A stretch of DNA of 24,000 bases from an uncultured Gammaproteobacteria bacterium. GTDB lineage: Bacteria > Patescibacteriota > Patescibacteriia > Veblenbacterales > UBA10138. Position 1 is the stretch's first letter. Each line of letters starts with the position of its first letter. Of the stretch, positions 1,447 through 23,200 are shown piece after piece. The translations under genes and the position numbers were made by a program. The stretch covers positions 2,876-26,875 of the forward strand of contig CAZMMW010000001.1 in NCBI GenBank assembly GCA_964567515.1, written 5' to 3'. Below the pieces are notes generated by a model. That model was given only the letters and a program-made list of their open reading frames with translations. It searched no databases and had not been told where the DNA came from.

Positions 1447-1917
1447 ATGGCACTAGGTACCGGACTGATGAATCCTGATTCTGATGGCAATAAATATTTA
1501 GATGACACCGAGGTGCGGGCTGGTTATTCTTCGCTGAATTCGGATAGAGTAAAATTAGAAAAACTAATTAGTGTAGATTTGGCCAAACAACACTTAACTT
1601 ACTATTTTGGTGGTAAAAAATTAGAAACTTTCCCCATTTCCAACAGTGTCAAAGGTTGGGAAACGCCAACGGGTGAATTTACTATAATCAAAAAATATCC
1701 AGTGAAACATTATGCTGGGCGTGATTTTGATTTTCCTAATACGAAATGGAACCTGCATTTTACTACCAAAAAATATAATTACTATATCCATGGCGCTTAC
1801 TGGCATAACGATTTTGGTAAACCTAAAAACCATGGTTGTATTAATGTCAGCTATCAAAATATAGAACGACTTTATATCTGGGCGCAAGCGGACACTAAGG
1901 TAAAAATCAGCTTTTAA
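1447..1917 (+). CDS. L,D-transpeptidase (YkuD-fold catalytic domain); the frame is already open from nt 1393
   Basis: YkuD signature 'YIHGAYW....KNHGCINV' (catalytic His and Cys) preceded by 'ISVDLAKQHLTYYFGG..FPIS..TPTGEFTI'. The N-terminal part carries another TSP3-like unit (NPDSDGNKYLDDTEVRAGYS). Upstream in the same frame, 1393-1446 reads KKLTDVDNDKDYLPDAWE. Confidence 0.85.
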   Translation: MALGTGLMNPDSDGNKYLDDTEVRAGYSSLNSDRVKLEKLISVDLAKQHLTYYFGGKKLETFPISNSVKGWETPTGEFTIIKKYPVKHYAGRDFDFPNTKWNLHFTTKKYNYYIHGAYWHNDFGKPKNHGCINVSYQNIERLYIWAQADTKVKISF

Positions 1918-1947
1918 AAAATACTGTTATAATGAACAGTATTTTTT
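1916..1947. terminator. Bidirectional intrinsic terminator between the convergent ldt and htrA genes
   Basis: Stem ATACTGTT (1921-1928) / AACAGTAT (1935-1942) with loop ATAATG. It is flanked by A5 (1916-1920) and T5 (1943-1947), so a U-run follows the hairpin on both strands. Confidence 0.6.
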
Positions 1948-1958
1948 AAATAATCAAA

Positions 1959-3278
1959 TTAGCTACTTTCTTTAAATTCTTCTAATTTTACCTGCGCTTC
2001 TTTGTTAGCGCCTTTGTGAAAAATTTTTAATTTAACTGTCTCGCCTGGACTAAATTGAGCCAGTATCCTAACCAAAGAGTGATTTTGATCAACTTTCTGT
2101 CCATTAACTTCTAAGATAATATCGTTTTCTACTAAACCAGCTTTATCGGCTGGGCTGCCAGGTATTACTGCCAACTGATCAGCCGCCGCACCACGGGTAA
2201 TTAAAGCTCCGTAATTAACTTCCAGTTTATTAGTTTTGGCCATCTCCGGTGTTACTAACACATAACGAATACCAAGATAAGGCCTGACGATTTTGCCGTA
2301 TTTAGAAAAACTAGCAATCATGCGCTTAGCTTCATTAACCGGAATAGCAAAACCAATCAACTGTCCGGATTGATTAATAGCTGTGTTAATGCCAATTACT
2401 TGGCCTTCTAAATTAACCAAGGGACCGCCAGAATTTCCCGGATTAATAGCTGCGTCGGTTTGGAAAACACCTTCTAAACTTTCTGATGAGCCACGATTAT
2501 CGCCCGCCACTACATTTCTGCCAATACCGGAAATTACTCCTTTGGTAATAGTATTGCGATACTCACCCAAAGCGTTGCCAATAGCAATCACAGTTTGCCC
2601 TAAAACCACTTGATCAGAATCACCAAAACTAACTTGTGGCAAATCTTTAGATTTAATTTGCACCAACGCCATATCATTTACCGAATCGCGAGCGACTATC
2701 TGCGCTTCATACTTTTTACCGTCATTGGTCAACACGGCATATTCCGCCTCGGTATCCTCCACCACGTGGCGATTAGTTAAAATTAAGCCTTTTTCCTGAT
2801 CAATCACAAAACCAGTACCGCCGCCGATTTCCTGTTTGCCTTGAGGAGTTCGGAAATTGGGAGATTGGTTACCAAAAAAGAACTGAAAAGGAAAATTGGG
2901 GCCAAAGAAATCATTATCAAAAGGGAAAGGACCGGTTTGATTATAAATTTTAGATAAATCTTTAGAGATAATAATGCTCACTACGGCTGGCGCGGCTTTT
3001 TTCACTGCCTCAGTAGTAGCCGATTCCTCTTGCAAAATCACATTGCTTTTTTGCACAACAGTTCCGTTTTTAATTGGTGCTGATGATAAAAAATTACTTT
3101 GTGAAAGGAGATTAAATAAATAATTTTGTGAAAACAAAGATCCTGCTATACCGGCGATAAAAGAAATTATTACTACTACCAGCCAAGTAGCTTGCCAGGG
3201 GGTAGAATGAGCTTTGGAAACTTTTGGTTTGTCAAATTTTTGAGTTAAAGAAATTTTAGAATTATCATCTAATAACAT
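1959..3278 (-). CDS. htrA: HtrA/DegP-family serine protease (S1C trypsin-like domain plus one PDZ), N-terminally membrane anchored
   Basis: Catalytic triad contexts are 'TNRHVV' (His), 'NDMALV' (Asp) and 'GNSGGPL' (Ser). A C-terminal PDZ-like segment is present ('PGSPADKAGLVENDIILEVNGQKV'). N-terminal TM helix 'WLVVVIISFIAGIAGSLF'. ATG at 3276-3278, TAA stop. Confidence 0.9.
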   Translation of the reverse strand: MLLDDNSKISLTQKFDKPKVSKAHSTPWQATWLVVVIISFIAGIAGSLFSQNYLFNLLSQSNFLSSAPIKNGTVVQKSNVILQEESATTEAVKKAAPAVVSIIISKDLSKIYNQTGPFPFDNDFFGPNFPFQFFFGNQSPNFRTPQGKQEIGGGTGFVIDQEKGLILTNRHVVEDTEAEYAVLTNDGKKYEAQIVARDSVNDMALVQIKSKDLPQVSFGDSDQVVLGQTVIAIGNALGEYRNTITKGVISGIGRNVVAGDNRGSSESLEGVFQTDAAINPGNSGGPLVNLEGQVIGINTAINQSGQLIGFAIPVNEAKRMIASFSKYGKIVRPYLGIRYVLVTPEMAKTNKLEVNYGALITRGAAADQLAVIPGSPADKAGLVENDIILEVNGQKVDQNHSLVRILAQFSPGETVKLKIFHKGANKEAQVKLEEFKESS

Positions 3279-3327
3279 AGTTTAATTTATTAATTAATTA
3301 AATTATTTAAGATTTGTGTCTTCTGTT

Positions 3328-3617
3328 ACCCCAAGCCCCCTCATCACCCTAGATTTACCTATCCTCCGTAGTTTTAACGAAGGAGGATTTCGGGGTCTTT
3401 TTTAGATTCTGAATCAAGTTCAGAATGACGGTTGCCTGAGGTTTGATCTCTAGTTGTTCCCGACCACCTTACCTGTCGTTCCGAACTTTTCTCTATTGTT
3501 ATTCCGAACGTCAGCGCCTGCCGACAGGCAGGAGGGAATCTCTGATCCTTTTATTTGTCATCCCCAACCCTCTTTCACCTGTCATTCCGAGCGAAGCGAA
3601 GGAATCTCTGCTTTTTT
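3328..3617. repeat. Cluster of GC-rich hairpin repeats (REP-like family 'ACCTGTC[A/G]TTCCGA[A/G]C ... GGAATCTCTG'), with two terminator-like ends on the + strand
   Basis: Family copies lie at 3471-3486 (half unit), 3498-3544, 3577-3610 and an inverted relative at 3405-3429 (ATTCTGAA-tcaag-TTCAGAAT). A nested hairpin ACCCC(3328-3332)..ATCCTCC(3361-3367)..GGAGGAT(3382-3388)..GGGGT(3392-3396) is followed by T6 (3398-3403). The 3577-3610 copy is followed by T6 (3612-3617). Confidence 0.6.
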
Positions 3618-3690
3618 CTTACCGACATTTAAGATTGCTTTGTCGTCCCGCCTTAAGCAAAACTCCTCACAATAACGTAATCAAGGCTAA

Positions 3691-4011
3691 TTACTTTTTT
3701 AAACTAGGCAGCAAATTAGCATCCTGATATTGCTTGTACAAAGAACTCGGATCTAAATTCCGCATCTGCCCTGCGGTTTGTTTTAAAGAATCGTAGGTTT
3801 GAATCAACTGCTCCAAATATGGCTGAATGGTTAAATAAGACATTACTAATAAACCGATGACGATAACAAATTTGATAAAACGATAAACCCGCTCCATCAT
3901 AAAATGGCGACGAATTTTTTCTACGGTTTTAAAAGTTTCGCGTGTGTATTTAAGATTTTCCTCCAAGAGTTTTTTAATCTCGTCTAGAGAAAAATTGGAT
4001 GATTCGGGCAT
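3691..4011 (-). CDS. Small single-pass membrane protein, function unknown
   Basis: The ORF track starts at 4059, but that codon is TTG. The first ATG is at 4009-4011 (MPESSNFSLDEIKK...), giving 106 aa. One hydrophobic helix (FIKFVIVIGLLVMSYLTI). I recognised no family motif. Confidence 0.55.
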   Translation of the reverse strand: MPESSNFSLDEIKKLLEENLKYTRETFKTVEKIRRHFMMERVYRFIKFVIVIGLLVMSYLTIQPYLEQLIQTYDSLKQTAGQMRNLDPSSLYKQYQDANLLPSLKK

Positions 4012-4037
4012 AAATTTGTAAATTCTAAATTTTAAAA

Positions 4038-4132
4038 AAATCCAAACGTCAAAAACCAAACATCAAATCAATGCCAAATGATTTAATTATATTTGGATTT
4101 TGGATTTGATTTAACATTAGGATTTTGGATTT
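4038..4132. repeat. Array of TTTGGATTT / AAATCCAAA motifs upstream of the 3691-4011 gene
   Basis: GGATTTTGGATTT occurs at 4095-4107 and 4120-4132, a 25-nt period. An inverted AAATCCAAA lies at 4038-4046, with degenerate relatives at 4053-4071. Confidence 0.5.
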
Positions 4133-4178
4133 AAGATTTAAAATAAGAGACTGCTCTATATTATATAATAACGGCCAA

Positions 4179-4649
4179 TTAAGCCAAACTTTTCACTACT
4201 GGCCAAAGTTTATTATTTTCCGATAAAAAATCGTAAACCAAAGTCGTCATTTCAACACGACGTAAATCAATCCATAATATTTTCCAAGACAATCTTTTAG
4301 ACTTGTTGCCAACTATATCATCAAGTAGTGCAGTTACTGCTAATAAATGATGCGCCATTTCTTTTCTATCATCATTGAGATCTTTAAGTAAATCAATAAA
4401 ATCTTTTCTAATTTTTAATTTTTCTAATTCAGAAATTGTTGCTCCGAGTGTCTTTTTGTCTAATTGAATTTGCGTATAGCCATATCTTTCTATAAGTTTT
4501 TCCTTTAGCGCCTGTTCAATCAATTGAATTTTAGCCATAAATACAGCATATTGTTCCAAAAAATTAAATTTTGTAATCCTGTCCAAATTTTTAAAAACTT
4601 GATTTGATAATTCTTTATATGGGATATTACCTCCTGTCATGCCTCGCAT
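4179..4649 (-). CDS. Hypothetical all-helical protein with an Rx4H motif (possible HEPN-like domain)
   Basis: The ATG at 4647-4649 lies 4 nt after the nrdG stop, with AAGGA about 9 nt upstream. 'LKDLNDDRKEMAHHLL' fits the HEPN-type '..R-x4-H' pattern. I recognised no other motif. Confidence 0.6.
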   Translation of the reverse strand: MRGMTGGNIPYKELSNQVFKNLDRITKFNFLEQYAVFMAKIQLIEQALKEKLIERYGYTQIQLDKKTLGATISELEKLKIRKDFIDLLKDLNDDRKEMAHHLLAVTALLDDIVGNKSKRLSWKILWIDLRRVEMTTLVYDFLSENNKLWPVVKSLA

Positions 4650-4653
4650 AAAT

Positions 4654-5361
4654 TTACATCCTTACCCCGCAAAAATCAACAAATGGCACAGCTATCTCTT
4701 GAAATTCTTTCATTTCTTCTTTAGAAAAACTTGCTTTGCTTTGCCAATCGCTATTTAAAATTTTACCTTGTGAAATAAAATTCTGCAAATAGTATTTTTT
4801 AGCGCCTTTGATTAATTGCGCCATGGCTTTAATATCCTCTGCTTTATGAAATTCCGGCGCTACCGTAGTTCTAAACTCATAATCATAATCACCTGCCTGA
4901 TCTATAATCATTCTGATACTTTTTTTGATCTTAGCTAAATCAACTTGCCGATTAATAATTTCCTGATAGCGCTCCTCGGGCGCTTTAATATCCATGGCTA
5001 TATAATCCACTAGTTTTTTGTTAATTAAATTTTGTAACCTTGCCGGATTGGTGCCGTTAGAATCAAGTTTAACCAAAAAGCCCCTGGTTTTAATTTTGGC
5101 AATAAATTCTGGCAGATCCCGATAGAGTGTTGGTTCGCCACCAGTAATACAAACGCCTTCTATTTTATCTTTCCTTTTATCAAGGAATTTAAAAAATTCC
5201 TCTTCACTAATAAATAAATTTTTATTTTTTAGTTTAGCGTCTACTAATTCGGGATTATGACAAAAAGAACAGGCAAAATTGCAACCGTAAGTAAAAACTA
5301 CCGCCGCCACCTTACCAGGATAATCAATTAGGGTTAGTTTTTGTAAACCAGCAATAATCAT
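4654..5361 (-). CDS. nrdG: Anaerobic ribonucleoside-triphosphate reductase activating protein (radical SAM)
   Basis: Radical-SAM cluster motif 'CNFACSFCHN' (CxxxCxxC) near the N-terminus, followed by 'GVCITGGEPTL'. The gene sits directly downstream of nrdD. Confidence 0.9.
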   Translation of the reverse strand: MIIAGLQKLTLIDYPGKVAAVVFTYGCNFACSFCHNPELVDAKLKNKNLFISEEEFFKFLDKRKDKIEGVCITGGEPTLYRDLPEFIAKIKTRGFLVKLDSNGTNPARLQNLINKKLVDYIAMDIKAPEERYQEIINRQVDLAKIKKSIRMIIDQAGDYDYEFRTTVAPEFHKAEDIKAMAQLIKGAKKYYLQNFISQGKILNSDWQSKASFSKEEMKEFQEIAVPFVDFCGVRM

Positions 5362-5442
5362 GTTGCAGATCTGTTTAAGATCCCTCTTCGCTAATTTTAA
5401 CTTACTTAAAAGAAAGTAAATTAGAAAGTAAATTGCGACGAC

Positions 5443-5607
5443 TTAATCAATTTTTTTATTATATTCCATTCGGTCATGGAATTCCGATTGCTTGCCGTCG
5501 TTCCATTGAGAAACCGGGCGAATATACCCTACTATTCGCGAATAAACTTCGCAGGGTTGTCGGGTTGGTAAATTAGGCGTTGCTTGTTTGATTTCCATAC
5601 TTGGCAT
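5443..5607 (-). CDS. Detached C-terminal glycyl-radical segment of NrdD (54 codons)
   Basis: My own translation, as the ORF is below the track's size cutoff: MPSMEIKQATPNLPTRQPCEVYSRIVGYIRPVSQWNDGKQSEFHDRMEYNKKID*. 'SRIVGY' matches the class III RNR glycyl-radical motif (RxxGY) and 'WN.GK..E...R' the conserved tail. It is in the same frame as nrdD, separated by TAA (5620-5622) plus 4 codons. Confidence 0.7.
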   Translation of the reverse strand: MPSMEIKQATPNLPTRQPCEVYSRIVGYIRPVSQWNDGKQSEFHDRMEYNKKID

Positions 5608-5619
5608 ATTTCTTATATT

Positions 5620-7701
5620 TTAATTTTTAGCTTTTAAAATTAATGGTAATTTATCTTTAATTTCGGCCACATAGCCAATTTCTTTATCACATAACGGACA
5701 GAAGAAATATTCTCCCTCTAAATAGCCGTGTTTAGGACAAATAGAAAAAGTGGGTGTTAAAGTAAAATATGGTAAACGATAATTTTTCAATACTTTGGCA
5801 ACTAGTTTTTTGGTGGCTTCGACCGACGGCATTTTTTCTCCTAAGAAACCGTGCAAAACTGTGCCACCGGTATATTTTATTTGCAATGGTTCCTGCAACT
5901 CCAAGGCCTCAAATAAATCGTCAGTGTGATTAACTGGCAAATGAGTTGAGTTGGTATAATAAGGCGATGCCCCTTTTTCACAACAAGCCTTCTCGTTAGC
6001 CACTATAATGTCAGGATATTTTTCCTTATCGCTCTTAGCAAAACGATAAGTTGCTCCCTCGCCTGGTGTGGCTTCTAAATTATATAATTCATTATCTTCA
6101 CCCTGATATTGTTTTAGACGGTTGTCCATAAAATCCATAATCTCCAAAGCCAGATCCCTGCCGGCTTTAGTGGCTATGCCTTGATCTTTACCTAAAAAGT
6201 TTAACAGCAACTCGTTCATACCTAAAATACCAATGGTATTAAAATGGTTCTTCCAATATTCGCCAAATCTTTGTTTAATGCCACCTAGATAAATCTTGGA
6301 GTAAGGATACAAACCAACATCAGTAAATTTTTCCAGCATTTGCCTTTTAATTTGTAAACTTTTCTTAGCCACATCCATTAACCACCCTAAACGATTAATC
6401 ATTTCTTCCTTAGACTTAGATAAATAGCCAATCCTAGGTAAATTAATAGTCACTACGCCGATGGAACCAGTTAAAGGATTGGCCGCAAACAATCCACCGC
6501 CACGTTTTCGTAACTCTCTATTATCTAAACGCAAACGGCAACACATACTCCTGGCGTCATCGGGATGCATATCAGAATTAATAAAATTGGCAAAATAAGG
6601 CAAACCATATTTAGCTGTCATTTCCCAAATTTTTTCTAAAACAGGATTATCCCAATTAAAATCTTTGGAAATATTATAGGTAGGAATAGGAAAAGTAAAA
6701 ACCCTACCATTAGCATCGCCCTCCAGCATGGTTTCAGCAAAGGCCTGGTTTAACATATCCATCTCTGTTTGAAAATCCTTATACTGTTCTGCTTGTAGCA
6801 TACCTCCAATAATAACCTGCTCTTCGCCTAATGTTTTTGGCGGCACTAAATCAAATGTCAAATTAGTAAAAGGTGTCTGAAAGCCGACTCTAGTTGGCAC
6901 ATTCATATTAAAAGCAAATTCCTGCATTCCTTGTTTTACTTCTTTATAACTTAATTTATCGTAACGAATAAAAGGCGCTAACAACGTATCAAAATTAGCA
7001 AAAGCTTGTGCGCCAGCAGCTTCACCTTGCAAAGTATAAAAGAAATTTACCACTTGTCCTAAAGCTGTACGAAAGTGTTTAGGTGGCTTGCTTTGTAGTT
7101 TACCAGACACACCTCCGAAACCACGGCGTAGTAAATCCTGCAAATCCCAGCCACAACAATAAACTGCCAGAATTTGCAAATCGTGCAAATGAAAATCGGC
7201 CTGAAGATGAGCTTCACGTACTTCTGGAGGATAAATCTTATGTAACCAATAATGAGAAGAAACCGCTGAAGCAACATGATTATTTAAACCTTGTAAGGAG
7301 TAAGCCATGTTGCTGTTTTCTCTTACTAGCCAATCTAATTTATTTAAATAACCATCCATTACATCATCAGAGTTAATCAAAGACAGCATTTCTCTAAGCC
7401 GAGCGTGCTGCTCACGATATAAAATATAAGATTTGGCTGCTGTATACTGCCGATTCTTCATTAAAATCTGCTCCACAACATCTTGTACTTCCTCTACAGC
7501 GGGAATGGAACGAGGATGAAATTTATTATTTAGTTCTTCGATTACCTGATCTGCTAATTTAGCGGCGTGCTTACCGTTTTTCTCAGTAACAGCTTTAAGT
7601 GCTTTCTCTATAGCCAGTTGAATTTTTTGCTCATTAAAGTCCACCACTTGGCCATCACGTTTTCTGATTTTTTCAATTTTATTCTTCATAAAATAATTCA
7701 T
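5620..7701 (-). CDS. nrdD: Anaerobic (class III) ribonucleoside-triphosphate reductase large subunit, ending before the glycyl-radical motif
   Basis: N-terminal ATP-cone ('IRKRDGQVVDFNEQKIQLAIEKA'). Conserved 'SMCCRLRLD', 'ANPLTGSIGVVTINLPR' and 'YYTNSTHLPV'. Zn-ribbon start 'SICPKHGYLEGEYFFCPLC'. The ORF stops at TAA 5620-5622 without an RxxGY motif. Confidence 0.95.
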   Translation of the reverse strand: MNYFMKNKIEKIRKRDGQVVDFNEQKIQLAIEKALKAVTEKNGKHAAKLADQVIEELNNKFHPRSIPAVEEVQDVVEQILMKNRQYTAAKSYILYREQHARLREMLSLINSDDVMDGYLNKLDWLVRENSNMAYSLQGLNNHVASAVSSHYWLHKIYPPEVREAHLQADFHLHDLQILAVYCCGWDLQDLLRRGFGGVSGKLQSKPPKHFRTALGQVVNFFYTLQGEAAGAQAFANFDTLLAPFIRYDKLSYKEVKQGMQEFAFNMNVPTRVGFQTPFTNLTFDLVPPKTLGEEQVIIGGMLQAEQYKDFQTEMDMLNQAFAETMLEGDANGRVFTFPIPTYNISKDFNWDNPVLEKIWEMTAKYGLPYFANFINSDMHPDDARSMCCRLRLDNRELRKRGGGLFAANPLTGSIGVVTINLPRIGYLSKSKEEMINRLGWLMDVAKKSLQIKRQMLEKFTDVGLYPYSKIYLGGIKQRFGEYWKNHFNTIGILGMNELLLNFLGKDQGIATKAGRDLALEIMDFMDNRLKQYQGEDNELYNLEATPGEGATYRFAKSDKEKYPDIIVANEKACCEKGASPYYTNSTHLPVNHTDDLFEALELQEPLQIKYTGGTVLHGFLGEKMPSVEATKKLVAKVLKNYRLPYFTLTPTFSICPKHGYLEGEYFFCPLCDKEIGYVAEIKDKLPLILKAKN

Positions 7702-8189
7702 TATTTTTGTCTTTTAATAAAGGAGAAAAGTTTTCTACCCTTGCCCCCTAATTTATTTAATTCTACTAAAAAGGTCTTGGTGTCTTTAAAGGATCTGTAG
7801 ACTGAAGCAAAACGAATATAACCAATTTCGTCAAAACTTTTTAAATGCTTCATTACTATCTCGCCAATATCTTGTGAAGTAATTTCCTGTTTCCGTTTTT
7901 TTTGAATATCCCTTTCAATCTTCTGTATTAAACGCTTAAATTGCTCCTGGGTATAGGGTCTTTTTTCCAAAGAATGTTTTAAACCCTGTTCTATCTTATC
8001 CCTGTTATACGGTTCTCTCCTACCGTCTCGTTTAACTACGGCTAAATCCAATATTTCTGTTTCTTCCACCGTAGAGAAGCGAAAACCGCACTTAGAACAC
8101 TCACGGCGACGGCGAATAGTTAAACCATCGGCTGCTACGCGAGAATCATTAACCTTAGTATCATAATAATTACAAGCTGGGCAATGCAT
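7701..8189 (-). CDS. nrdR: NrdR transcriptional repressor of ribonucleotide reductase genes
   Basis: N-terminal Zn ribbon 'MHCPACNYYDTKVNDSR...CSKCGFRFSTVE', then an ATP-cone ('VVKRDGRREPYNRDKIEQGL'). Its stop overlaps the nrdD ATG by 1 nt (TAATG). Confidence 0.9.
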   Translation of the reverse strand: MHCPACNYYDTKVNDSRVAADGLTIRRRRECSKCGFRFSTVEETEILDLAVVKRDGRREPYNRDKIEQGLKHSLEKRPYTQEQFKRLIQKIERDIQKKRKQEITSQDIGEIVMKHLKSFDEIGYIRFASVYRSFKDTKTFLVELNKLGGKGRKLFSFIKRQK

Positions 8190-11197: not shown

Positions 11198-11659
11198 TTA
11201 TTTATTACTAAGAATAAATTGTTCTAACTGATTCATCTGGCGCCATTGTTTTAAAGTCTGATGATCAAAACCTAAAAGATGAAAAGTACCGTGTATCACC
11301 AAACGATTCAATTGCTGAGCGACAGACACCCCCTCTATCCGGGCTTGTTTTTTGGCATAAGGCAGACAAATGATAATCTCACCCATCAAGGGTTGATGAT
11401 CATAAGTAAACGATAATACATCCGTCACATACCGACGGCTTCTATATTCACTATTTAATTTTCTAATAACTTTCTCATCAACTACTACTAAATTAATCCC
11501 TGCTATTTTTATTCGGCGCTTCTCCAAAGATCGTTTAATTAACACTTTAACCAACTGAAACCAATTAGTGGGTAATTTATATTTACAAGTATTAATTAAA
11601 CTAATTTTAATTTTTTTAATCTGATTTGATTTATTCATTAATCTATCATTTATTTTCAT
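11198..11659 (-). CDS. ybeY: rRNA maturation endoribonuclease YbeY
   Basis: Zn-binding motif 'HGTFHLLGFDH' (HxxxHxxxxxH) plus 'DVLSF'. Its ATG overlaps the stop of the upstream gene (ATGA at 11656-11659). Confidence 0.85.
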   Translation of the reverse strand: MKINDRLMNKSNQIKKIKISLINTCKYKLPTNWFQLVKVLIKRSLEKRRIKIAGINLVVVDEKVIRKLNSEYRSRRYVTDVLSFTYDHQPLMGEIIICLPYAKKQARIEGVSVAQQLNRLVIHGTFHLLGFDHQTLKQWRQMNQLEQFILSNK

Positions 11660-12963
11660 TCTGAATCTGTTGGTGTTAACAGCGGACTAAACACTCTATA
11701 CATCATCTTAAAAGTACTAGCGTAATCCTGTGTTTTGTGAGTACCAATATTATAACTGATATTAACCAACCTGCCTGATAATGATAAATAAAGATTAAGG
11801 CCATCAGGACTAACCGCTGTTGTTTTATTGCCAATTTTTGTCGTTGATACTTCTTCTAATCTTAAATTAGTCATCTTGGCATACCACTCTACCACATTAG
11901 TAATTACATCATGTTCCGGAAACGAAATTTGCACAAATTCATCAGTGGCGGAAACAAAACGTATTTCCTCTGGTTCCTGACCAGGAACTAACTGCCAACT
12001 AATTGGATAATAAATAGTATAATCACCATTACTACTGGTATATTTGGTAACTGCTGCGGAGTCAAATAATTTTTTACCTTCGCCATGAGCAGGATCATAA
12101 GCATTAATTACTTCCGTGCCATCAGGATAAGAATCGCCATCAGTATCTGGATTATTAATGTCCGTACCATAAATCAACTCCTCTATATCAGTTAAACCAT
12201 CGTCATCACTGTCTAAACTTAAAGGCGGAGGAGTGGTTCTAATTTTAGTAGTATCATCTGGTGTTATTTCTAAACCCTCCTCTTTATCAAATCCTGCTGG
12301 TGTGTAAAAATGTAATCCGGCAGATAATAAACCAGCTATCCCTTCCTCTAAGATAAAGGTAATTTTATAAGTTAATCCGGCCGTACTTGAGTAAATGTAA
12401 TTATTAGTATCGCCAGGATCTTTGGGCACTGGATCTAGATATACTGGTTGTTGGGGAAATTTGCTAAAATCTGCCGCTGATAAAGTCTCCGCACCAGTTA
12501 AACCCAAATTTGTCCCACTGGTACTAATAGGATATGTTCCCTTGTTTTTGTAATACAAATCTAATGCCAAACCAATCTTACCTATATCAAAATAACGCTG
12601 CTGATCCCTTTCTTTAGCGGTGGTTTGTGGCGGTGTTGGTTCTTGAGGTTGTTGCGCTACAGGAGGATTATTAACTAATGGTTGATTATTGGTCGGTTGG
12701 TTATTTTTACTATTCTGCCATAAAAAATAGCCGGCCGTACCTAAAGCCGCCACTACCAAAGAGCCCATCATTACCCAGATCCAAACCTTGCTGGACGATT
12801 TTGGTTTTTTATCCATAACAGAACCTGATGGCGTATAATCATGCACTAAGGAAGGCATGGTGTAAATTTCACCAATCGGCCGGTTGTCATCAGCCAACAG
12901 AACGGCTTGTTCAACCGTCTCCACGGCCTTTGTTGTTTCATTTTTCTTACCTAAACCAAACAT
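11656..12963 (-). CDS. Single-pass membrane protein with extracellular pseudopilin-like globular domain and TSP3-like Ca-binding repeats
   Basis: TM helix 'VWIWVMMGSLVVAALGTAGYFLW' (aa ~59-81), then a Pro/Gln/Asn linker. 'ERDQQRYFDIGKIGLALDLYYKNKGTYP ... YLDPVPKDP ... YIYSS..LTYKITFILEEG' (nt ~12298-12615) resembles the GspG/type IV pilin globular core without the N-terminal prepilin helix. 'DSDDDGLTDIEELIYGTDINNPDTDGDSYPDGTEV' lies at nt ~12088-12219. Confidence 0.75.
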   Translation of the reverse strand: MFGLGKKNETTKAVETVEQAVLLADDNRPIGEIYTMPSLVHDYTPSGSVMDKKPKSSSKVWIWVMMGSLVVAALGTAGYFLWQNSKNNQPTNNQPLVNNPPVAQQPQEPTPPQTTAKERDQQRYFDIGKIGLALDLYYKNKGTYPISTSGTNLGLTGAETLSAADFSKFPQQPVYLDPVPKDPGDTNNYIYSSTAGLTYKITFILEEGIAGLLSAGLHFYTPAGFDKEEGLEITPDDTTKIRTTPPPLSLDSDDDGLTDIEELIYGTDINNPDTDGDSYPDGTEVINAYDPAHGEGKKLFDSAAVTKYTSSNGDYTIYYPISWQLVPGQEPEEIRFVSATDEFVQISFPEHDVITNVVEWYAKMTNLRLEEVSTTKIGNKTTAVSPDGLNLYLSLSGRLVNISYNIGTHKTQDYASTFKMMYRVFSPLLTPTDSE

Positions 12964-12988: not shown

Positions 12989-14194
12989 TTATTTGCAAAT
13001 AACCTTTTCTACGGTTCCATCTGGCAAAGTGAAAGTTGATCCTACTCCTTTAGACAATACGAGAGTTGCCAAGAGATAACTCTTGAGATAAGGTTTACTC
13101 ACTAATTCCTGATTATTTTGTCCGCTAAGAGTATAATATTGATCTAAATAAGTCTTAGATATATCACAAATTACATTACGCTGTGAACCAGTTTGCAAAT
13201 CAATACCTAACCCACTTACTTGACATAAGCCACTATTAGAAGAATGAATCTGAAAATCTACATACTTATCAGGATAACGGCTGTCTACCGCCAAACTAAT
13301 CTTGGCTTGCTGACAAAGCTCAAAATTCTGTAAAAAACATTGGTAAGCTTTTACTGATGCCTCATCTGAAGAATACATATTCTCACTAGCGGAAACAAAA
13401 GCTATGGCCTTGCCACAATCTACAACAGTACTATTATCAATATCTTTAATAATATTATTAATCCCTTCCATGTTTAATTCCTGATTAGGTAACTGCAATA
13501 ACTTGGCTCCTTTGGTGGAATTATTAGGATCATAACCATGATTAATTTCTTCTCCGTCCAGGTAACCATCGCCATCAGAGTCTGGATTTAAAGGGTTAGT
13601 GTACCAAAATTTAACTTCTTCTCCGTCAGTTAAGCCGTCGCTATCAGAATCTGGATTATCCACAAACGTTCCTTGCTGTACTTCTTCTGAATCAGACAAA
13701 CCATCGCCGTCATAATCACGCGCTTCTGGCGGCATTTCATTATTAATATTAATAGAAGTATTGTTATTATTCGTCGATAGCGTAGTAGGAGTATTAGTAT
13801 TAACCTCTACTCCTTTATTTGAGGCTGATTTACTAAACCACCAATATGCCCCTGCTCCACCTGCTCCTACCACCAAAATTATAACTACTATCCACAGCCA
13901 TTTTTTACTGCCATGATCTCCCGGTTCCAACGGCATCAAAGGCGGCGGCACAGACAAATCCCGTGATATTCCAGCCATAAACGAAGGTGGTTGTGGTATT
14001 GGTGAAGGAGACGAAGATGGTGACATGGAAAATGATGAGGGTGATGATAACGGCGAAGACTGCCCGGGTGCTGCTGGAGGCGGAGTAGCTCCAGTTGGTG
14101 GAGTTGATGGTGAACGAACTGGCGCGCCAGCTTCTGTATCAGCAAAAATATCTTCAATTGGTGACTTGGGAGAGGATAATAAATTATCAAACAT
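12989..14194 (-). CDS. Single-pass membrane protein: Pro/Ser-rich cytoplasmic N-terminus, TSP3-like Ca-binding repeats, Cys-containing C-terminal domain
   Basis: Low-complexity N-terminus (aa 1-95, locally GC-rich DNA). TM helix 'WLWIVVIILVVGAGGAGAYWWF'. Three TSP3-like units 'DYDGDGLSDSEE', 'NPDSDSDGLTDGEE' and 'NPDSDGDGYLDGEEINHGYDP' at nt ~13526-13720. The C-terminal ~170 aa contain 7 Cys. Confidence 0.75.
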   Translation of the reverse strand: MFDNLLSSPKSPIEDIFADTEAGAPVRSPSTPPTGATPPPAAPGQSSPLSSPSSFSMSPSSSPSPIPQPPSFMAGISRDLSVPPPLMPLEPGDHGSKKWLWIVVIILVVGAGGAGAYWWFSKSASNKGVEVNTNTPTTLSTNNNNTSININNEMPPEARDYDGDGLSDSEEVQQGTFVDNPDSDSDGLTDGEEVKFWYTNPLNPDSDGDGYLDGEEINHGYDPNNSTKGAKLLQLPNQELNMEGINNIIKDIDNSTVVDCGKAIAFVSASENMYSSDEASVKAYQCFLQNFELCQQAKISLAVDSRYPDKYVDFQIHSSNSGLCQVSGLGIDLQTGSQRNVICDISKTYLDQYYTLSGQNNQELVSKPYLKSYLLATLVLSKGVGSTFTLPDGTVEKVICK

Positions 14195-14234: not shown

Positions 14235-17200
14235 TCAATCTGCTAATACCTGTCTGAAATAAGCCGTGACTGAACGATTGGTTGTCATGGAAACAGTACA
14301 AGTTAAACTGTTGCCAGAACAATCACCGTCCCAATAGTTAAAAGGAGCATGTAGGCTGTTACTAGCAACTAAGGTTACTGTGGCACCAGGAGAATATGGC
14401 TCATAACAATCAACGCCACAGGAAATACCGCCAATATTTGACGAGGTTACTGTTCCGGGGCCAGATTTAGTAACAGTCAAGGTAAAGCCTGGTTCAAATC
14501 GAGCATTAACAGTACGATCAGCAGCCATGGACAACCTACAAATTGGAATATTACCAGTACAAGCGCCACCCCAAGCCCATAAAACTACGCCCGGCACATT
14601 AATTTGGGGACTTAAGGAAACTGTAGTGGTGGAAGCATAATTTGCCGTACATTCGCTTTCACAACTAATACCGGCTGGGTTGCTGATAATATAAGTATTA
14701 GCTGATTTGGCTGAACCGTGAGTAGCTACATTTAAAGTATGCGCCGCAGCAAAATTGGCCGTAGCTATAGTATCGGCAGTAATAGAAAAAACACAAATAT
14801 TACTAGCGTTGCCGCCTTGGCAAGAAACACTAGTCCAACCGGTAAAAATATTACTGCCGCTAACGGTAGCAGTTAAAGTTACATTACTGCCGTGATTATA
14901 AGTTTCCGTGCAGTCGCCTGGACAAGCAATACCGCCAGCGCCAACTGAACCACTGCCGGCTGGATTGATATTAACCTGCAGGTTCCTAGGCGCTAGAGTA
15001 AAATTGGCCGTAGTTGTAGTATCGGCAGTGATAGAAAAAACACAAATATTACTAGCGTTACCGCCTTGGCAAGAAACACCAGTCCAGTTAGAGAAAACAT
15101 AATTACTGCTGGGCTGGGCTTGTAAAGTAATTGTGGTGTTTTGCTCATAGTTTTGCTGTTTGATAGAACAAGCTCCATCACACACTAACGAACCAGGATT
15201 AATGATTATAGTACCCGCTGTTGCTACTGGTTGTTTTTGAACACTCAAAGTATAACTTGGCAAAGAAAAACTGCCGCTGATAGTTTTATTGCCATTAATG
15301 TTCAAATAACACAAACCAGTACCGCTACAATCTGAGGAATTCTGCCAACCAGCGAAAATATAAGGAGCTGTAGCTGTGGCTTGCAAAGCCACGTTTGTGT
15401 CATAAGAATAAGTAGCAGTACAGGTATTAACACCGTTGCCACAATTGATTTTGCCAGCATTATCTTTAATAACACCATTGGCTGGCGCTATGTTATTGTT
15501 AACTGTCAAAGTATAATTTTGGGCCTCAAACGTTGCGTTAACGTTTTTGTTAGTATCTATAGTCACATTACAAGTTGTGCCTGACACATTGGTGCAGCCT
15601 AACCAGCTGATAAACTTATAACCAGTCCCTGCTGTAGCAGTTAAAGATACTGGGGTGTTTGGGGGATAATTAGCTGTACAAATCCCTTCGGTATTTGAAC
15701 AATTAATACCATTACCAGTCACTTGACCAGAACCAGCGACTATTACATTTAATTTATAAGTAAGCGGAACTTGATTAAAAGTGGCTGTAACTGTCACAGG
15801 AGTGGAACTATTATAAGTGAAAGTACAAATACTATTATTACAACTGGCAACGTTAGCTGGTTGGAAAGACCAGCTACTAAAAACAGAACCGGTTCTAGCA
15901 GTAGCATACAAAGTTAATGGCTTACCAATTTCAAAACTATTTACACAAATCCCGCCAGGACAATCAATGCCAGTAGGATCACTGTTTACCCAGCCAGAAC
16001 CTTTAGTAGGATCATTGTTAATATTTACCGTTAGTTGATATTTCTGTAAAAAACTACCTCTAACTGTTATATTTTTAGTAAGAGTTAAAGTACAAGTATC
16101 GGTACCGCCACAAAAAGGATCATACGTATTAGTAATATTATTCCAAATGCTCCAACCAGAAAATTGATAATTATTGCCAACCTCTAACATGGGTCTTAAA
16201 GTCACTAATTGACCATAAGTAAATGTCTGGCTACAATCGCCAGGACAATTAATACCGGCTGGATCACTAACAATACTTCCAGCAGAGCCATGCCGCTCTA
16301 CTGTTAAAGTGGCTGGCTTTAAATTAAAGATAGCTGTCACGTTTTTGATGCTACTCATAGTAACCTGACAGTTTCCGCTTATATTAGTACAAGCCCCTCC
16401 CCAACCAGCAAAAACTGAACCGACTCCTTCAGCTGCTTGTAAAGTAACCACTGTATCTTTAATATAACTGGCGGAACAACTAGAACCACAATCAATCACC
16501 GGGTCGTTAGGCGCAATACTTAATACTAAACCAGCACCAGTGCCTTGCAAAGATACATTCAAATTATATTTAATTATGGGCGGTTCAAAAGTAACTTTGA
16601 TTGTTTTGTTAGATGATAAAGTCACAGTGCAGATTAAACCAGATACCGCATCGCAGCCGCTCCAATTTTTAAATATCTGATCCCCATCAGGAGTGGCGAT
16701 TAAAGTAACCACGGTATCGCTAATAAAACTATAAGAATCACCACCTGAAGATATATAAGACCCTGGTTGAATAGATATAAAGCCATTACCAGTTACAACT
16801 GTAGTTAAAGTATATTTTTTAGCAAAGCGAGCCACTATAGATTTGGCGCCGGTCATTTTAACACGGCAGTCAGTGCCATCAGGATTTTCCACAGCATTAC
16901 AGCCGATCCAACTAATAAAAGCTGAACTAGTATCAGGATTAGCACGCAAAACTACTTCCTGATTACTACCAAAAGCAACCGAACAAGTAGACCCACAATT
17001 AATACCTGCGGGAGTGCTCGTTACAGTACCACTACCATTACCAGTCCGAGCTACTGACAAATTATAATTTGCTACTGTACTAAATTGGGCGTTTACTGAT
17101 CTGCTGCTATCCATGGTTACTAAACAATTACCTTGAACCACTTCAGCGCACCCCCCCCAACCAACAAAAGCAGAACCAGAAACCGCTTGAGCTGTTAACT

Positions 17201-20200
17201 TTACCGGCTGACCACTAATAGTGTAAGTAGCGGAACAAGCATTACCACAACTTACTAAACCATCTTCACTGGTAATAATACCAGCACCTTCTTTAATAAT
17301 ACTTAAGGTAAAGGGTGGTGTTACGCTAACTTTTTTCCACATTATTTCCGAATCCTGACAAATAGCAGAAACTTCCGGTGGTTTATTTAAACCAGCGCCC
17401 CGCCAAGTAGAGCCTTTGAATTCAGGATTAAAATATAGTTTACTAGAACCTGCTCCAGTGGCTTCATATAAATAAATATGAGAATCTGCCGGACATTTAA
17501 AATCCTTAGCATTTTCATTCCAGCAAGTAGCGGCATCATAACCTGCAAAACCAGTGCCACTACAGTTATTAAAACCGTTTAAAGGATCAACCGGTAATTT
17601 TTTCCCTAATGCCGCGCCTAAAGTCTGCTGCCATGAATTCCAAGCGCTAGTTGACCATTTGGCCAGATAAGTACCAGCCAGTAATTGAGGCAGGGTATAA
17701 TTATGTGTCTTACCATATTGTATCAAATATTTCTCTATGGTATTCAAATCCACCAAGCGCTGCATATCACGCTGTAATTTAGTTTTGTTTTCGGAAGTTA
17801 AATTAATATTAAATTGCCAATTAGCCACTAGCTGATTATAAATGTTCTGGGCGATAGCAGTAGCCCCGTGATTAACTGATAATAAATGTTCATGACTAGA
17901 AATAATATGATTAGCGATAAATTTCTTAGCATTCAAAGCCGAAACATATAAAGTCTGGCCACCAACGCCTGCTGGATAACCATCTAAAGTAGTGGGTTTA
18001 ACTGACACATACCTTCCTTCTTCTATAGTTTTTAACCAGTCAGCAGGAATAAGACGATCGGGATTAGGAAAAGATTTAAGCCCTATAACATCTTTGGTGT
18101 CAAAAAGATTAAATAGTTTTTCATTATCCTTGTCTATAACCTTCACCAAGGCAGGCAAAGCACCGCTTAATTCCCGCACCTCTATATTGTCAAATAAAAC
18201 AGGATCTGTTGGAGAAATAGGATGAACTCCCAAACAAATAGTATACTTATCGTTATCTTTTGTTTCAAAAACCACTCCGGCTTTTTGCCAACCAGCAGCT
18301 CCGTTGGTTAAATGTGTCCAGTGTGTCCAAGGAGAAGCGCAATCATTATTGGAAGTAGGAAATAATATTGGTATCGCCTTGTTGGTTGAATTAATGAGAC
18401 TATTATAAAACTGAACTGAAGCATAATAGGTAGTATTTTTCTTTAAACCTGTTATCTGCTGTTTGACCATACGCCTAACGCTGCCGCCAGAATATTCTTT
18501 GGTAATTTGTAAAACATTATTATCATTATTTTGTGATAATCCTGGTATAGCTGCGGGTGTTACTACTGAATACCAAGCGGTATTATCAGTGCCGCTATTT
18601 TGCCATCCAGTAAGGTCATTAGTGAAACTGCCGTTAGTTATAAAATTAATATCGCCCGTAGCAGCTGTTTGAGCTCGGCAATAACGTAAACGATAATTAT
18701 AATTACTATCTACAAATTCCCAAGGCACTTCACATAAGAAAACATCCAAAGCCGCCTCGGCAGCTAAAGTTCCTGAACCAGGAGCTGAACCAATGGCTTT
18801 AACCTTTAAAGTGTTTTGTCCATTTTTGTTGCCAACCACCACCAGAGTAGTAGGATCAGGAGCCGACGGAGCAATACTTACTAAACCAGCTGGCGTGGCG
18901 CTCCAATTATAAGTAGCAACCAATGGTTGATTATCAGCAGCATAAACTTGAGCCGAAAAATTAACTTGTTCGCTGGGTTTAGTAAAACTATAAGAGGCGG
19001 GGGTTATAGTGATCTTGGATAATTTACAAATATCCGGACCGGTAGTAAAAATTGTGACACAACCAGCTGGCGATAAAGCGCAATTTAAAGATTCGCCAAC
19101 CGCGCCTTTGACTGTATTTTCCACAGTCAACTTATATAGTTGATTAACCTCCAATGGCTCATCTGGTATAAAAGCCACAGCATCAAAACTATCTTTTTTA
19201 ATAAGTTTAACTTTACCAGAAACATTTACTGTTCCTTTAGTTAATTTAAAATTTGTTGCGGAAACTGAATTAGAATTAAGATGACGATTAAAGTTAGCCA
19301 CAATTTCCGCATTGCGGCAAACATTAGTATCATTATTAGCAGGCTGAAAAGAAACTAGCAACAAATTGCCAATACCGCTGCTACTCTCTTCTACAATAAA
19401 AGCCAAAGGATTACTAACTAAAGTTAATACTTGTTTAGCTTCATCCCAGCCGCCAATACAAGTATCGCCAAATTGGATCTTGGGAAATTTACACTCAAGG
19501 CCAACAACTTTGGTAAATTCTTTTTCAACTGTGACATCGCCAGAGTTAGTGGTATTGGGGATGGGAGATAAATTAATAGCTGTGCCAGACCAAGCAGCTG
19601 ATAAATCTCCGGAGTTAGAAAACTTAACTTTAGAACCAGCTGCTTTAGTTAACCCAAAATTTTCTCCAACCAACTTACCATTATTATATGGCAAACTAGT
19701 ACGCACAATGGGCTTGGTGCTGGTATCAGGCACTATTCCACATAAACCCGGCCCTAAAGGTAAATTAGAATTATAATTAAATTCTTTGGAATTACTAGAT
19801 AAATTTGGCGGGTCTTCGGAATTAACAGTAACTTGACTAATAAATTCTCCGCTGCCCAAATTGGGCACTTTTACCACAATTTGTTTATTAGTCCACCAAT
19901 TAAAATCAGAACAAGTATCAGGTAAAGGATCAGCCGAAACTAAAGCTCCGCCCGAATCAGTAAAAACCACACTGCAAGGATTGCCTACTGCCTCTAAATA
20001 ATCACACCAACCAAAATTTCCGCCTTTAATAGTTACCCAAGTTCCGCCAGGGCCAGTATTAGGTAAAATATCAGTAATAAATGGTGTACCATAATACTGT
20101 ACCTTATTAGAAGCAACTGGATTATATCTTCCATCATTAGTAGCATCAACTTCAACCCATACCTCGCCTGAATGCGGTTCAGTCGGCACTTTATAAATAA

Positions 20201-23200
20201 TTTCTTTATTAGTCCATTTGGTTACTAATCTTGAATCGCCATCAATTGGACCACTAACAAACCGACCGAAAGGAAAATATAGAGTACCAGCTTTTTTGGT
20301 ATCACTAAAATTATAACCTTTAATGGTAATACTGGTTCCAGCAGCTCCATAATTAGGGACCATAGAACAAATACCCGGCTTAATTTCATTAGTAACAGTA
20401 AAAACCGGCTTAAGGCTATCAGGATTAGCCGCCGAAGTTCCTCTGCTGGTAATTACTTCTACTTTATAAGTATCGCCAATTGCTCCTTCTGCTAATAAAT
20501 TAGGCGAGGTAATAATAATTTCTTTATTACTCCAAGAGCCACAATCACCACGCACGGCCTGAATTCTTTTGTTAGTGACTGTGTTAGTAAACCACACCGA
20601 TCCGCTAGAACCAAAATCATCACCCCTTAAAGTAATAACTGTTTTCATATCTTTCTCTGCCCGACCAGAAGTTGGAGTCATGCCGGTGATCTTGGGTGGT
20701 CCGGCTAAACCTCCTGGCCCATCTCCTTCGCCCACAGTAATCAAACTCTTGGCTGACAAACTTGCTGCTTGAGTAATTCCTACGTTTACCTCAGCTGGCG
20801 TTTCGGTGGCACTGTCGCCTGTAACTTTTATCTTATTAACTACTGGTGGATTTGTAGCCGACATGCTGATATGAATATCGTTTTCATTCCAGGTCCAAGA
20901 ATAATCTGCCGGGTCTAATGCCACGCATTGGGCAGTATAAGCGCTACCTGTTAAGTCACGCGAATCGCCAATAGCCACACGGGTCTGGCTAGGAGAAATT
21001 CCTAAACTGTTTACCTGACAATTTTCGCTAGCCGAACTCACGCGCCAGTGCCATTCATAAGGTGCTGTCATTTTAATACCATAAATACTTTTGACTTGAT
21101 CACTAATTACCACCCGATACCAATAGTCGTCGGTTAAAGCGGAGGGGTTTAGAATAAATCCTTGCACTTGACCTTTGCTGTTTAATTGTGGCGATAAAGT
21201 ATAAGTTTCATTACTACCACAATCTGCAGCTACATCAGTAGTAAAGGTGTCGCCTTTATTACAAGGTATAATGCTGACGTTACCAACAAAAGAATCTTTA
21301 TCCATCGGCAAAGTAAAACGCGCCATTATTTGAGCTTGGGGACAAACTTTTTTACTGCCTGGCGCCGGACTGGGGCTGGGAGTATTAGTTTTACATTGCG
21401 CATAAGAAACTACTTGCGGTGGTATATTTGTAGCACCAGAACCACCAGCAATATCTTTTACTTGAAAAGGTTTACAATTTGAAGTCAGATCTTTACCACT
21501 AATTCGCACTTTAGCACATACTTGCCATCTGCCTTGGCCTAAAGCATTGATATCAGAAGTGGTTGTAGGAGTTTGGGAAACAATTTTATCATTGCTCCAA
21601 GAAGTATAATCGGCACTCTTGGGTTCTAAACTAATATTGTTGCCATTAAAATTAAGTTTACTATTAGCTGACTTGGTATTGCCAAAATTTGTACCTACTA
21701 CTGTTAGAGACAAGGGTAATAAATCGGGCGGCGGCGTACCTGAAATTCTGCCGCTGGTTGGAGTAATACTGCAAATACCCGGACCCGGCGGATTATCATT
21801 AACAGCAAACTGCCAATCCTGATTGCTACGACGGCCAGAAGTAGTTTTTAATTCTACCGGATAATTAGCCAAAGCTAGACTATCGGGAATTTCTACTAAA
21901 ACATTGGTCTCGTGCCACCAATCAGAGCATAAACCAGGAGGTATTCCTGCAGTAGTATCAAATAATAATTGACCCGGGCTGCTGCCAAAATTCCAGCCAA
22001 TAGCACTAACCCATTGCCCTTTGCCGCCGGAAGTGGGCGATAAACTATCAATATAAGGACTTAAAATAGTAAACGGATCTTTCTCGTTAGAAAAAGTACT
22101 GGCGATGCTGATTTTTACCTTACCCGCTCTTACGTCACTAGCGTCATAATCATCCTGCGGATAAGCCGGACCAGTAGTGGCGCTTACTGGCACCTTAATT
22201 TTAATAGTATCTTCGGTAATGGTAGGATCTATAGCTTTACAAGCGTCTTCGCCCCAACAAACTAAATTGTTGCTATCATCAAAACTGTCATTACCAGCGG
22301 CAAAATGATTAAAATAAACCTCACCTGGTAAAGCAAAGAAATTTTTACCTGTTAGAGTAACCATATCAGAATAATATCCTTGGGCTGGAGTAATACTATC
22401 AATCACTGGTTCACAATTCTCTGTGACACCAGTTTCAAACTGCCAAACTTCGTCTGCTACCATAGGAATGGAACAAGCGTCTTGAATGCCGTGATTCACA
22501 GCGCCGGCAGTATCTCCTTTTAAGGTAACACGATATTTAGTATTAGATTCTAAAGCAATAATCTTACCTTGAGCATCAACTGGATTATAACTGACTGTTT
22601 TGAAATCGTTAGTAAATCTGGGCTTGCTTAAAGATACTGGCATTGCTACTGTTCCATCGGCTTTTAATTTTTCTAAAATAACGTTTCCAGCAAAACTGAT
22701 GGATAACATTGGTTCGCTAAAAGTAGCGCCAATTGCTATCCGACGACAAACCAAATTGGCGCCAGCTCCTGGCTGTTTAGTTGTTACTGTAGGCGCGGTA
22801 CTGTCTGATTCAGTACCGGTGGTAAACCACCACTCCTTGCCCATGCTGGGATTACGGAAAGAAAACCTGGCTCCGGTGTCAGGATTAACACCGGTTAAAT
22901 TACTCAAAATCACGTGGTATTTAGTATTTGGCTCAAATTCATGGTTAACGTGAGTAAAAGCTAGATATTCAGAATCATTACCCGGACCATACTTATCAGT
23001 AGCAGCATTATAAAATAGAGAGCCATCAGAATCTTTCTCTATGCGAAAACTGGTTTTATCAACCGGCGATGACCATAAAACAGTATAATTAAACCCGGCT
23101 TGCACCGCCATACATAATTTAACATTGCTTTGCGTAGGCGAAATCCAAGTGGCGCGCAAATAATCAGAACCGCCCAAACTGCCTGAACACGGCGGGGTGG

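Follow-up and report, generated by a model that had tools for sequence, protein, structure and literature searches.

A glycyl-radical loop encoded apart from its reductase: comparative evidence for an obligate two-chain class III ribonucleotide reductase in Patescibacteria

In the class III ribonucleotide reductases (RNRs) characterised so far, the glycyl-radical loop is covalently part of the NrdD polypeptide and follows the CxxC of its Zn ribbon by 3-6 residues. The Thermotoga maritima type (PDB 4COI, 4U3E) combines an ATP-cone, a barrel, a Cys-Cys finger loop (SCCR), a Cys-His-Cys-Cys Zn ribbon and an RIVGY loop with an adjacent gene for the activase NrdG. In T. maritima NrdD the ribbon, with ligands CxxxHx6CxxC, separates the last barrel strand from the C-terminal loop that bears Gly621 (PMC4493059). 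Here we describe a locus that encodes the same elements, with MCCR as its finger loop, but places the glycine loop on a separate gene product. It lies in a 24,000-nucleotide stretch (the window) of contig CAZMMW010000001.1, assembly GCA_964567515.1, from an uncultured bacterium of the Patescibacteriota order Veblenbacterales. The nrdD gene stops before the glycine motif, and a 54-codon open reading frame (ORF) downstream of it carries that motif. We propose that the two ORFs encode a genuine, evolutionarily fixed and obligate two-chain class III RNR, a reading to which the comparative sequence evidence leads us to assign a probability of roughly 0.88.

Separate glycyl-radical proteins have been described before. 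GrcA/YfiD and the T4 protein Y06I are small stand-alone proteins that are conserved only in the glycyl-radical loop, are presumably activated by the cognate radical S-adenosylmethionine (SAM) activase and are inserted in trans into a large barrel (PMC13450708, PMC8683613). According to a 2026 review, only formate lyases are known to have such spare-part proteins, and whether other glycyl-radical enzymes have them is undetermined (PMC13450708). The preliminary description of the window likened the 54-residue peptide to GrcA, and as an analogy the comparison is sound. As a claim that the peptide is a spare part it does not hold. GrcA is a spare that rescues an oxygen-cleaved but otherwise complete pyruvate formate-lyase (PFL), and it matches the Pfam family Gly_radical (PF01228, InterPro IPR011140); the window peptide matches only NRDD and, with a partner that lacks a glycine site, would be an obligate subunit rather than a spare. 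A probable spare beside a complete partner is instead what we see at two other loci, L075 and L076, discussed below. The window peptide is also shorter than GrcA, which has 127 residues.

RNRs encoded in pieces are known as well. The class II pair NrdJa/NrdJb of Pseudomonas aeruginosa and Thermus phage phiYS40 comes from two neighbouring ORFs that very few nucleotides separate (12 nt in phiYS40); its C-terminal piece bears a Zn-finger or redox tail, and the pieces reassemble non-covalently (PMC9669993, PMC3653736). However, that class is B12-dependent, and its split piece is a reductant-shuttling Cys tail rather than a radical cofactor. Likewise, NrdA-a/NrdA-b of Aeromonas phage Aeh1 and phage nrdD genes split by introns, inteins or homing endonuclease genes still give active enzyme from their pieces (PMC3045599, PMC3653736). 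These are mobile-element splits within the core (PMC3653736), whereas the window has a 12-nt spacer at the boundary between Zn ribbon and glycine loop, and the piece separated in Aeh1 NrdA is not the radical cofactor.

The cluster in the window runs nrdR, nrdD-large, small ORF, nrdG. Its features are as follows, in window coordinates:

7701-8189, minus strand: nrdR, transcriptional repressor of RNR genes, 162 residues, with Pfam Zn_ribbon_NrdR and ATP-cone matches; the first gene of the cluster
5620-7701, minus strand: nrdD large chain, 693 residues, with ATP-cone, alpha/beta-barrel core, finger-loop Cys pair C387/C388, Zn ribbon and conserved tail
5689-5739, minus strand: codons of the Zn-ribbon ligands, C655-P-K-H658-x9-C668-P-L-C671, all inside the large chain
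5671-5688, minus strand: tail motif of the large chain, D-K-E-I-G-Y (family consensus CPxC-D-E-E-I-G-Y)
5623-5670, minus strand: variable end of the large chain, probably disordered (predicted local distance difference test, pLDDT, below 50 at residues 684-693)
5620-5622, minus strand: TAA stop of the large chain
5608-5619, minus strand: 12-nt spacer from the large-chain stop to the small-chain ATG, AT-rich, encoding NIRN
5443-5607, minus strand: small chain, 54 residues, MPSMEIKQATPNLPTRQPCEVYSRIVGYIRPVSQWNDGKQSEFHDRMEYNKKID, with its ATG at 5605-5607; variable N-terminal arm, glycyl-radical loop and C-terminal helix/tail of NrdD
5524-5538, minus strand: glycyl-radical motif R24-I-V-G27-Y28, with the codon of the presumed radical residue G27 at 5527-5529
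4654-5361, minus strand: nrdG, radical-SAM activase, 235 residues, with Pfam Radical_SAM and Fer4_12 and NCBIfam TIGR02495 (NrdG2) matches

This layout agrees with the preliminary description on the coordinates of both ORFs, the TAA and the position of the small ORF, which is in the nrdD frame and four sense codons (NIRN) past the stop. It was also right that nrdR and nrdG look intact, judged by their Pfam and NCBIfam matches; nrdG scores 219 bits against TIGR02495, where the cut-off is 131.

Family models divide cleanly between the two ORFs. The large ORF matches an ATP-cone and positions 1-529 of the 562 in Pfam NRDD (PF13597; E 1e-181), and the small ORF matches positions 531-562 (E 1.1e-10), confirming that the nrdD ORF ends without the glycyl-radical motif and that the small ORF has it. 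Similarly, the 684-position NCBIfam model NF006126 matches the large chain at 3-655 (1034 bits; cut-off 548) and the small chain at 648-683. That a single NRDD model is divided exactly at the break puts the split far beyond chance. NRDD is the only Pfam match of the small chain, which has none to PF01228 at E <= 0.01, and all of its NCBIfam matches are NrdD models. Neither Pfam nor NCBIfam holds a model specific to the small protein, and a PDB sequence search with the 114-residue junction region alone gave no match. The enzyme is an NrdD family member by all features tested, the one exception being a glycine loop that is on another polypeptide.

Where exactly does the cut fall? Against T. maritima NrdD, the alignment of the large chain runs to residue 610 and that of the small chain covers residues 614-646. 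The segment C655-x2-H658-x9-C668-x2-C671 aligns with the 'C..H......CPVC' zinc site of the T. maritima enzyme, and its four ligands are invariant in 50 aligned homologues, split and fused, which points to a complete Zn ribbon in the large chain with metal ligands assigned by homology. The cut thus lies at the domain boundary between ribbon and glycine loop and not through the ribbon. In this respect the preliminary description has to be corrected, as it had nrdD stopping after half of the ribbon and took the Cys of CEVYSR in the small chain for the missing Cys of the zinc site. With all four ligands by homology in the large chain, that Cys is not needed, and a zinc site shared between the chains is not supported. 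The CEVYSR Cys is nearly invariant; Ala or Thr takes its place in the functional-looking relatives L058, L075 and L076. The finger-loop sequence S385-M-C387-C388-R389 is likewise invariant in the 50 homologues. Its T. maritima counterpart, SCCR, has been discussed (PMC4493059), and by homology C387/C388 would provide the radical-receiving Cys.

The small chain is a widespread protein in its own right. Its RIVGY corresponds in alignments to YMRIVG621Y in T. maritima NrdD and to RITG711Y in Prevotella copri NrdD (PMC4493059, PMC11226230), and the S, R, G and Y of the motif are invariant in 244 small chains. A word-indexed protein search with the 54-residue query returned 135 proteins; the 120 that were listed have 39-85 residues and carry the source names Patescibacteria, Uhrbacteria, Falkowbacteria, Microgenomates and Parcubacteria, on contigs of up to 507 kb. 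In an alignment of 40 sequences, 14 columns are invariant (C19, E20, S23, R24, G27, Y28, R30, P31, V32, W35, G38, K39, E42 and R46) and the N- and C-terminal arms vary. When 1.84 billion representatives at 50% identity were searched exhaustively with a HMMER profile, 4989 proteins reached E <= 1e-3, and 149 of the best 150 are 48-149 residues long. Among the 149 newly returned representatives, 138 have 85 residues or fewer and 139 start with Met. There are therefore at least 138 clusters at 50% identity of stand-alone glycine-motif proteins no longer than 85 residues.

The large chain, too, has many homologues without the loop. The 120 best large-chain homologues, 67-91% identical and 676-1004 residues long (118 of them at 676-700), all lack the glycine motif. 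We scanned one genome per species with the small-protein profile and inspected the junctions of the 80 resulting loci by script, which gave 19 further split loci, each with a truncated nrdD followed by a 40-66-residue ORF with the glycine motif. Of 19 split loci, 18 keep the order nrdD-large, small ORF, nrdG, the exception being a contig end, and in 11 we detected a homologue of nrdR ahead of nrdD. A small ORF follows the truncated nrdD in all split loci and at all large-chain homologues that we examined. For three large-chain homologues this was checked on their contigs: in two, a called 48-residue NRDD ORF follows, and in the third (L084, on an 802-kb contig) a 52-residue ORF with a perfect motif at 3612-3770 had been missed by the gene caller. 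Small chains are likely under-annotated.

The small ORF is also under purifying selection, judged by substitution patterns. The closest relative, L001, is a Candidatus Veblenbacteria metagenome-assembled genome whose NrdD is 91% identical and ends at the same TAA. Across the 31-codon core of the small ORF, RQPCEVYSRIVGYIRPVSQWNDGKQSEFHDR, the window and L001 differ at 14 synonymous and 0 non-synonymous positions. Omega is 0.015-0.03 against L002 and L003, so that dN/dS, which the preliminary description had proposed to measure, is 0 to 0.03 across the three closest relatives. In most of the split loci farther away synonymous sites are saturated, whereas dN of the small ORF stays at 0.1-0.3. 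The small ORF is intact in all 20 split loci, counting the window.

We placed the split forms in a neighbour-joining (NJ) tree of gap-trimmed large-chain cores with 100 bootstrap replicates. The window falls in a clade of 15 taxa, all of them split (bootstrap 67/100), and internal identities of 55-91% make the split state an old one. The split forms L037, L054 and L061 group with L075 and L076 (100/100), and L058 and L066 group with their fused sister L060 (76/100). The NrdD tree therefore shows the split state in at least three places, and on this evidence repeated origin or spread is probable. Two of the loci, L071 (Woesearchaeota) and L066, carry archaeal labels.

Several nrdD genes of the set carry insertions of about 1 kb. 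These lie at the position of window NrdD 387/388, between MCC and RLRL of the finger loop, in L052 and L066, and at 275/276 in L036 and L070. One long ORF (1012-1066 residues) is kept despite the insertion in L052, L066 and L036. The four insertions are probably inteins, so that some nrdD genes of the split clade contain inteins away from the split point.

In place of the glycine loop, the large chains have a clade-specific tail. All 120 end 2-30 residues after C-P-x-C-D-[ED]-E-I-G-[YF], with D and G in 120/120, E in 116/120, I in 106/120 and Y or F in 117/120. The CDEEIGY motif was not found in fused NrdDs with short linkers (CPxC-TIKQP-CEVYSR). In longer form the tail reads CPxC-D-E-E-I-G-Y-(I/V)-(R/E)-E. 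MAFFT aligns its EIGY(I/V)R with the VVGYIRP glycine motif of fused NrdDs, and positions 648-655 of NF006126 are covered by the matches of both chains. The tail could be a degenerate copy of the glycine motif, but we offer this as an idea only, because the segment is short and because in L045 (Micrarchaeota) a single chain combines the tail motif with a genuine glycine motif. CDEEIGY may be a vestige of the lost glycine loop, a mimic of it or a docking element.

Structure predictions fit with two chains. The AlphaFold2 (AF2) model of the large chain has the NrdD fold (pLDDT 78), with low confidence at finger-loop residues 390-411 and in the last ten residues, and in Foldseek it matches every solved NrdD (template modelling score, TM, 0.5-0.7; E 2.5e-26 to 2e-15). 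Modelled alone, the small chain is mostly unstructured (pLDDT 67), with a helix at residues 37-47. The two models are consistent with folding on assembly, though they are not proof of it.

How might such an enzyme work? The operon would give two separately translated chains: a 693-residue chain with ATP-cone, catalytic barrel, Cys finger loop and complete Zn ribbon, and a 54-residue chain with the loop that bears radical G27 (RIVGY) and a helix/tail that would pack on the barrel surface. The small chain would dock non-covalently, so that its glycine loop enters the barrel next to the Cys387/388 finger loop. NrdG would abstract the G27 hydrogen, either on the free peptide or with the loop swung out. 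The PFL activase accepts a 7-residue glycine-loop peptide and also activates free YfiD, which makes activation of the free 54-residue chain chemically reasonable. The radical would then pass to the finger-loop Cys, and catalysis would proceed as in single-chain NrdD. In P. copri NrdD the glycyl-radical domain is highly mobile, as seen by cryo-electron microscopy and hydrogen-deuterium exchange (PMC11226230), and this makes a non-covalent version plausible. Finally, oxygen breaks glycyl-radical proteins at the glycine that carries the radical (PMC13450708). With that residue on its own small chain, the loss would be limited to an inexpensive 6-kDa peptide that can be exchanged.

Related proteins occur in other settings. 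In L075, a full-length NrdD with its own glycine loop (1624-3855) is followed by a small ORF at 3893-4156 and then nrdG; in L076, a full-length nrdD ending at about 2275 is followed by a small ORF at about 2380-2590 and then nrdG. These small proteins, of roughly 90 residues, have their own CxxC...CxxC element and glycine motif. Proteins of the same type stand behind a truncated NrdD in L037, L054 and L061, and together the two layouts suggest a route from spare to obligate. A further 14 loci hold orphan proteins of 94-166 residues with CxxC...CxxC and the glycine motif, and no nrdD or nrdG within 4 kb. Four of these loci, all from Patescibacteria, adjoin oxidative-stress genes and head the following list:

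L028, 3860-4168: orphan in the order Fur-[orphan]-rubrerythrin-desulfoferrodoxin
L031, about 3900-4126: orphan adjoining Fur
L040, about 3850-4126: orphan adjoining rubrerythrin
L055, 3845-4150: orphan adjoining hemerythrin and a glutaredoxin-domain protein
L013, 3794-4144: orphan
L072, 3854-4138: orphan
8 further loci: orphans of the same kind

The orphans and the small proteins of L075 and L076 have the appearance of true spares for class III RNR, of the GrcA type, and the L075/L076 pairs and stress-cluster orphans support the idea that NrdD glycine modules can work in trans. We therefore raise, as a tentative proposal whose chances we rate just short of even, that NrdD-type glycyl-radical peptides are an unrecognised family of exchangeable radical cartridges, obligate in the window clade. 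In sister lineages the versions with a Zn ribbon, beside full-length NrdD or in the oxidative-stress clusters, would be a true spare once oxygen has cleaved the enzyme. If true, PFL would no longer be the only glycyl-radical enzyme with a spare-part system, and for the first time an enzyme would be seen to keep its stable protein radical, in normal operation, on a separate mini-subunit.

Why would the glycine loop be encoded separately? The main rival on this question accepts the two-chain enzyme as real and holds that the split is a neutral gene fission with no benefit for oxygen repair or regulation. We consider this a serious possibility, though with somewhat less than an even chance. Split RNRs that reassemble are known from NrdJa/NrdJb, including the 12-nt phage nrdJ spacer (PMC9669993, PMC3653736), and from Aeh1 NrdA-a/b; the split point is a flexible domain boundary, the easiest site for fission; and nothing in the window ties the pair to oxygen stress. 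On the other hand, the split occurs in at least three places of the tree and has been kept over deep divergence, and the large chain has evolved a strongly conserved tail motif of its own. Moreover, stand-alone glycine proteins beside full-length NrdD and in oxidative-stress clusters suggest selection for a trans-acting module.

It is also conceivable, but improbable, that the large ORF survives as a remnant without catalytic role, while the small ORF supplies a GrcA-like spare to a complete NrdD elsewhere in the genome. Only 24 kb of the genome is visible, and stand-alone glycine proteins do occur beside full-length NrdD (L075, L076) and as orphans. However, the large chain is strongly conserved, its catalytic Cys pair, Zn ligands and barrel residues do not vary, it sits within a complete nrdR-nrdD-nrdG operon, and 120 of 120 large-chain relatives share the truncation. 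No second nrdD was present in any fetched locus. Patescibacteria genomes are very small, so two nrdD copies are unlikely.

Two readings that the preliminary description had listed beside the two-piece enzyme, towards which it inclined and which the comparative evidence supports, are more doubtful still. One is read-through or recoding at the TAA, giving a single polypeptide of 752 residues. The two ORFs of the window are indeed in frame and four sense codons apart, and three other split loci are in frame too. The other 16 of the 20 are not (frame 0 in 4, +1 in 6 and +2 in 10). Spacers from stop to ATG range from 11 to 179 nt, with the longest at 146-179 nt; the large-chain stop may be TAA, TGA or TAG; and the in-frame spacer of L002 holds a second in-frame stop. 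In L001 the spacer is 13 nt instead of 12, a 1-nt indel that puts the ORFs out of frame. Aligning relatives, as had been suggested, shows that the split and the position of the small-ORF start Met are conserved, whereas frame and spacer are not, and Met starts are the rule among the newly returned representatives (139/149). Because frame and spacer vary, a general mechanism of read-through is excluded, and it is incidental that the two ORFs of the window share a frame. With neither a conserved zero frame nor a single conserved stop in the 20 loci, we rejected a programmed recoding site. Reassignment of TAA was rejected too: TAA terminates 14 of the 16 window genes and is an ordinary stop here, as the preliminary description had held. 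Read-through is thus very improbable.

Equally remote is the second reading, in which a recent nonsense mutation has left nrdD a decaying pseudogene and the small ORF a leftover. A fresh nonsense mutation would look like a single in-frame stop, which is what the window has. But the split is common to all 120 closest large-chain homologues and to a clade reaching down to 55% identity, the substitutions in the small ORF are 14 synonymous to 0 non-synonymous, the Cys pair and Zn ligands are invariant, and the operon is intact. The frameshifts or stops that decay had been predicted to leave in the small ORFs of relatives were not seen in any of the 20 loci.

Least credible is a sequencing or assembly error, also proposed earlier, for which there is only the prior that metagenome assemblies carry single-base errors and an unrelated locus, L030, that looks like a frameshift artefact, whereas the exact 54-residue protein occurs on two contigs from the independently assembled Logan runs SRR11582139 and SRR11582140, with junction DNA identical to the window, TAA included, over a 271-base alignment, and the same layout recurs in many unrelated assemblies. 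In L030, a long-read Bacteroidota assembly, nrdD is broken at about 3909-4290 by an apparent frameshift just before the glycine motif. Given the overlapping frames and the lack of a clean start codon, we regard this break as a probable assembly error rather than a true split, and it illustrates, by contrast, what an artefact looks like.

Mobile elements were considered separately. A split made by a group I intron, intein or homing endonuclease was rejected, as there is no intervening element and the spacer is only 12 nt. Intein motifs were looked for at the window split and none were found, and the small-chain profile matches DnaE split inteins only at chance level (E 0.4-0.75), so a split intein was rejected as well.

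Some points weigh against an obligate two-chain enzyme as we have described it. No clear Shine-Dalgarno sequence precedes the small ORF, although most genes of the window lack one too. That the main split clade arose once has moderate bootstrap support (67/100, from NJ only). Chain assembly, activation by NrdG and activity are argued from conservation, and the RNR gene content of the genome was read within the 24-kb window only. The advantage under oxygen damage is a hypothesis without direct support in the window.

The remainder of the window is an ordinary Patescibacteria-type chromosome of 38% GC that encodes ClpB, YkuD, HtrA, FtsZ, FtsA, YbeY and a giant protein of 3126 residues. The ORF of the latter (14235-23615, minus strand) adjoins that of a 401-residue protein with bacterial thrombospondin type 3 (TSP3) repeats (12989-14194), and a 435-residue ORF without a Pfam match lies nearby (11656-12963). 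The 81-nt spacer between the small ORF and nrdG contains a perfect 12-nt tandem duplication at 5411-5434 (agaaagtaaatt twice, plus strand), where the alignment with L001 has a 16-nt gap.

Full-text literature searches did not find a split class III RNR described. The two-gene layout is shared by many ultra-small bacteria and is, we conclude, a real, conserved and apparently undescribed feature of a known enzyme class. The locus and its relatives offer a concrete and widespread spare-part candidate in class III RNR. A natural NrdG substrate of 54 residues would be a minimal system for studying how a glycyl radical is installed and how the loop enters the barrel. Across hundreds of lineages, a truncated-looking nrdD is paired with a 40-60-residue ORF that gene callers can miss, and metabolic reconstructions may therefore wrongly score deoxynucleotide (dNTP) synthesis as broken. 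Finally, the split may explain how Patescibacteria and DPANN archaea, with their tiny genomes and maybe no back-up RNR, keep up an oxygen-sensitive RNR.

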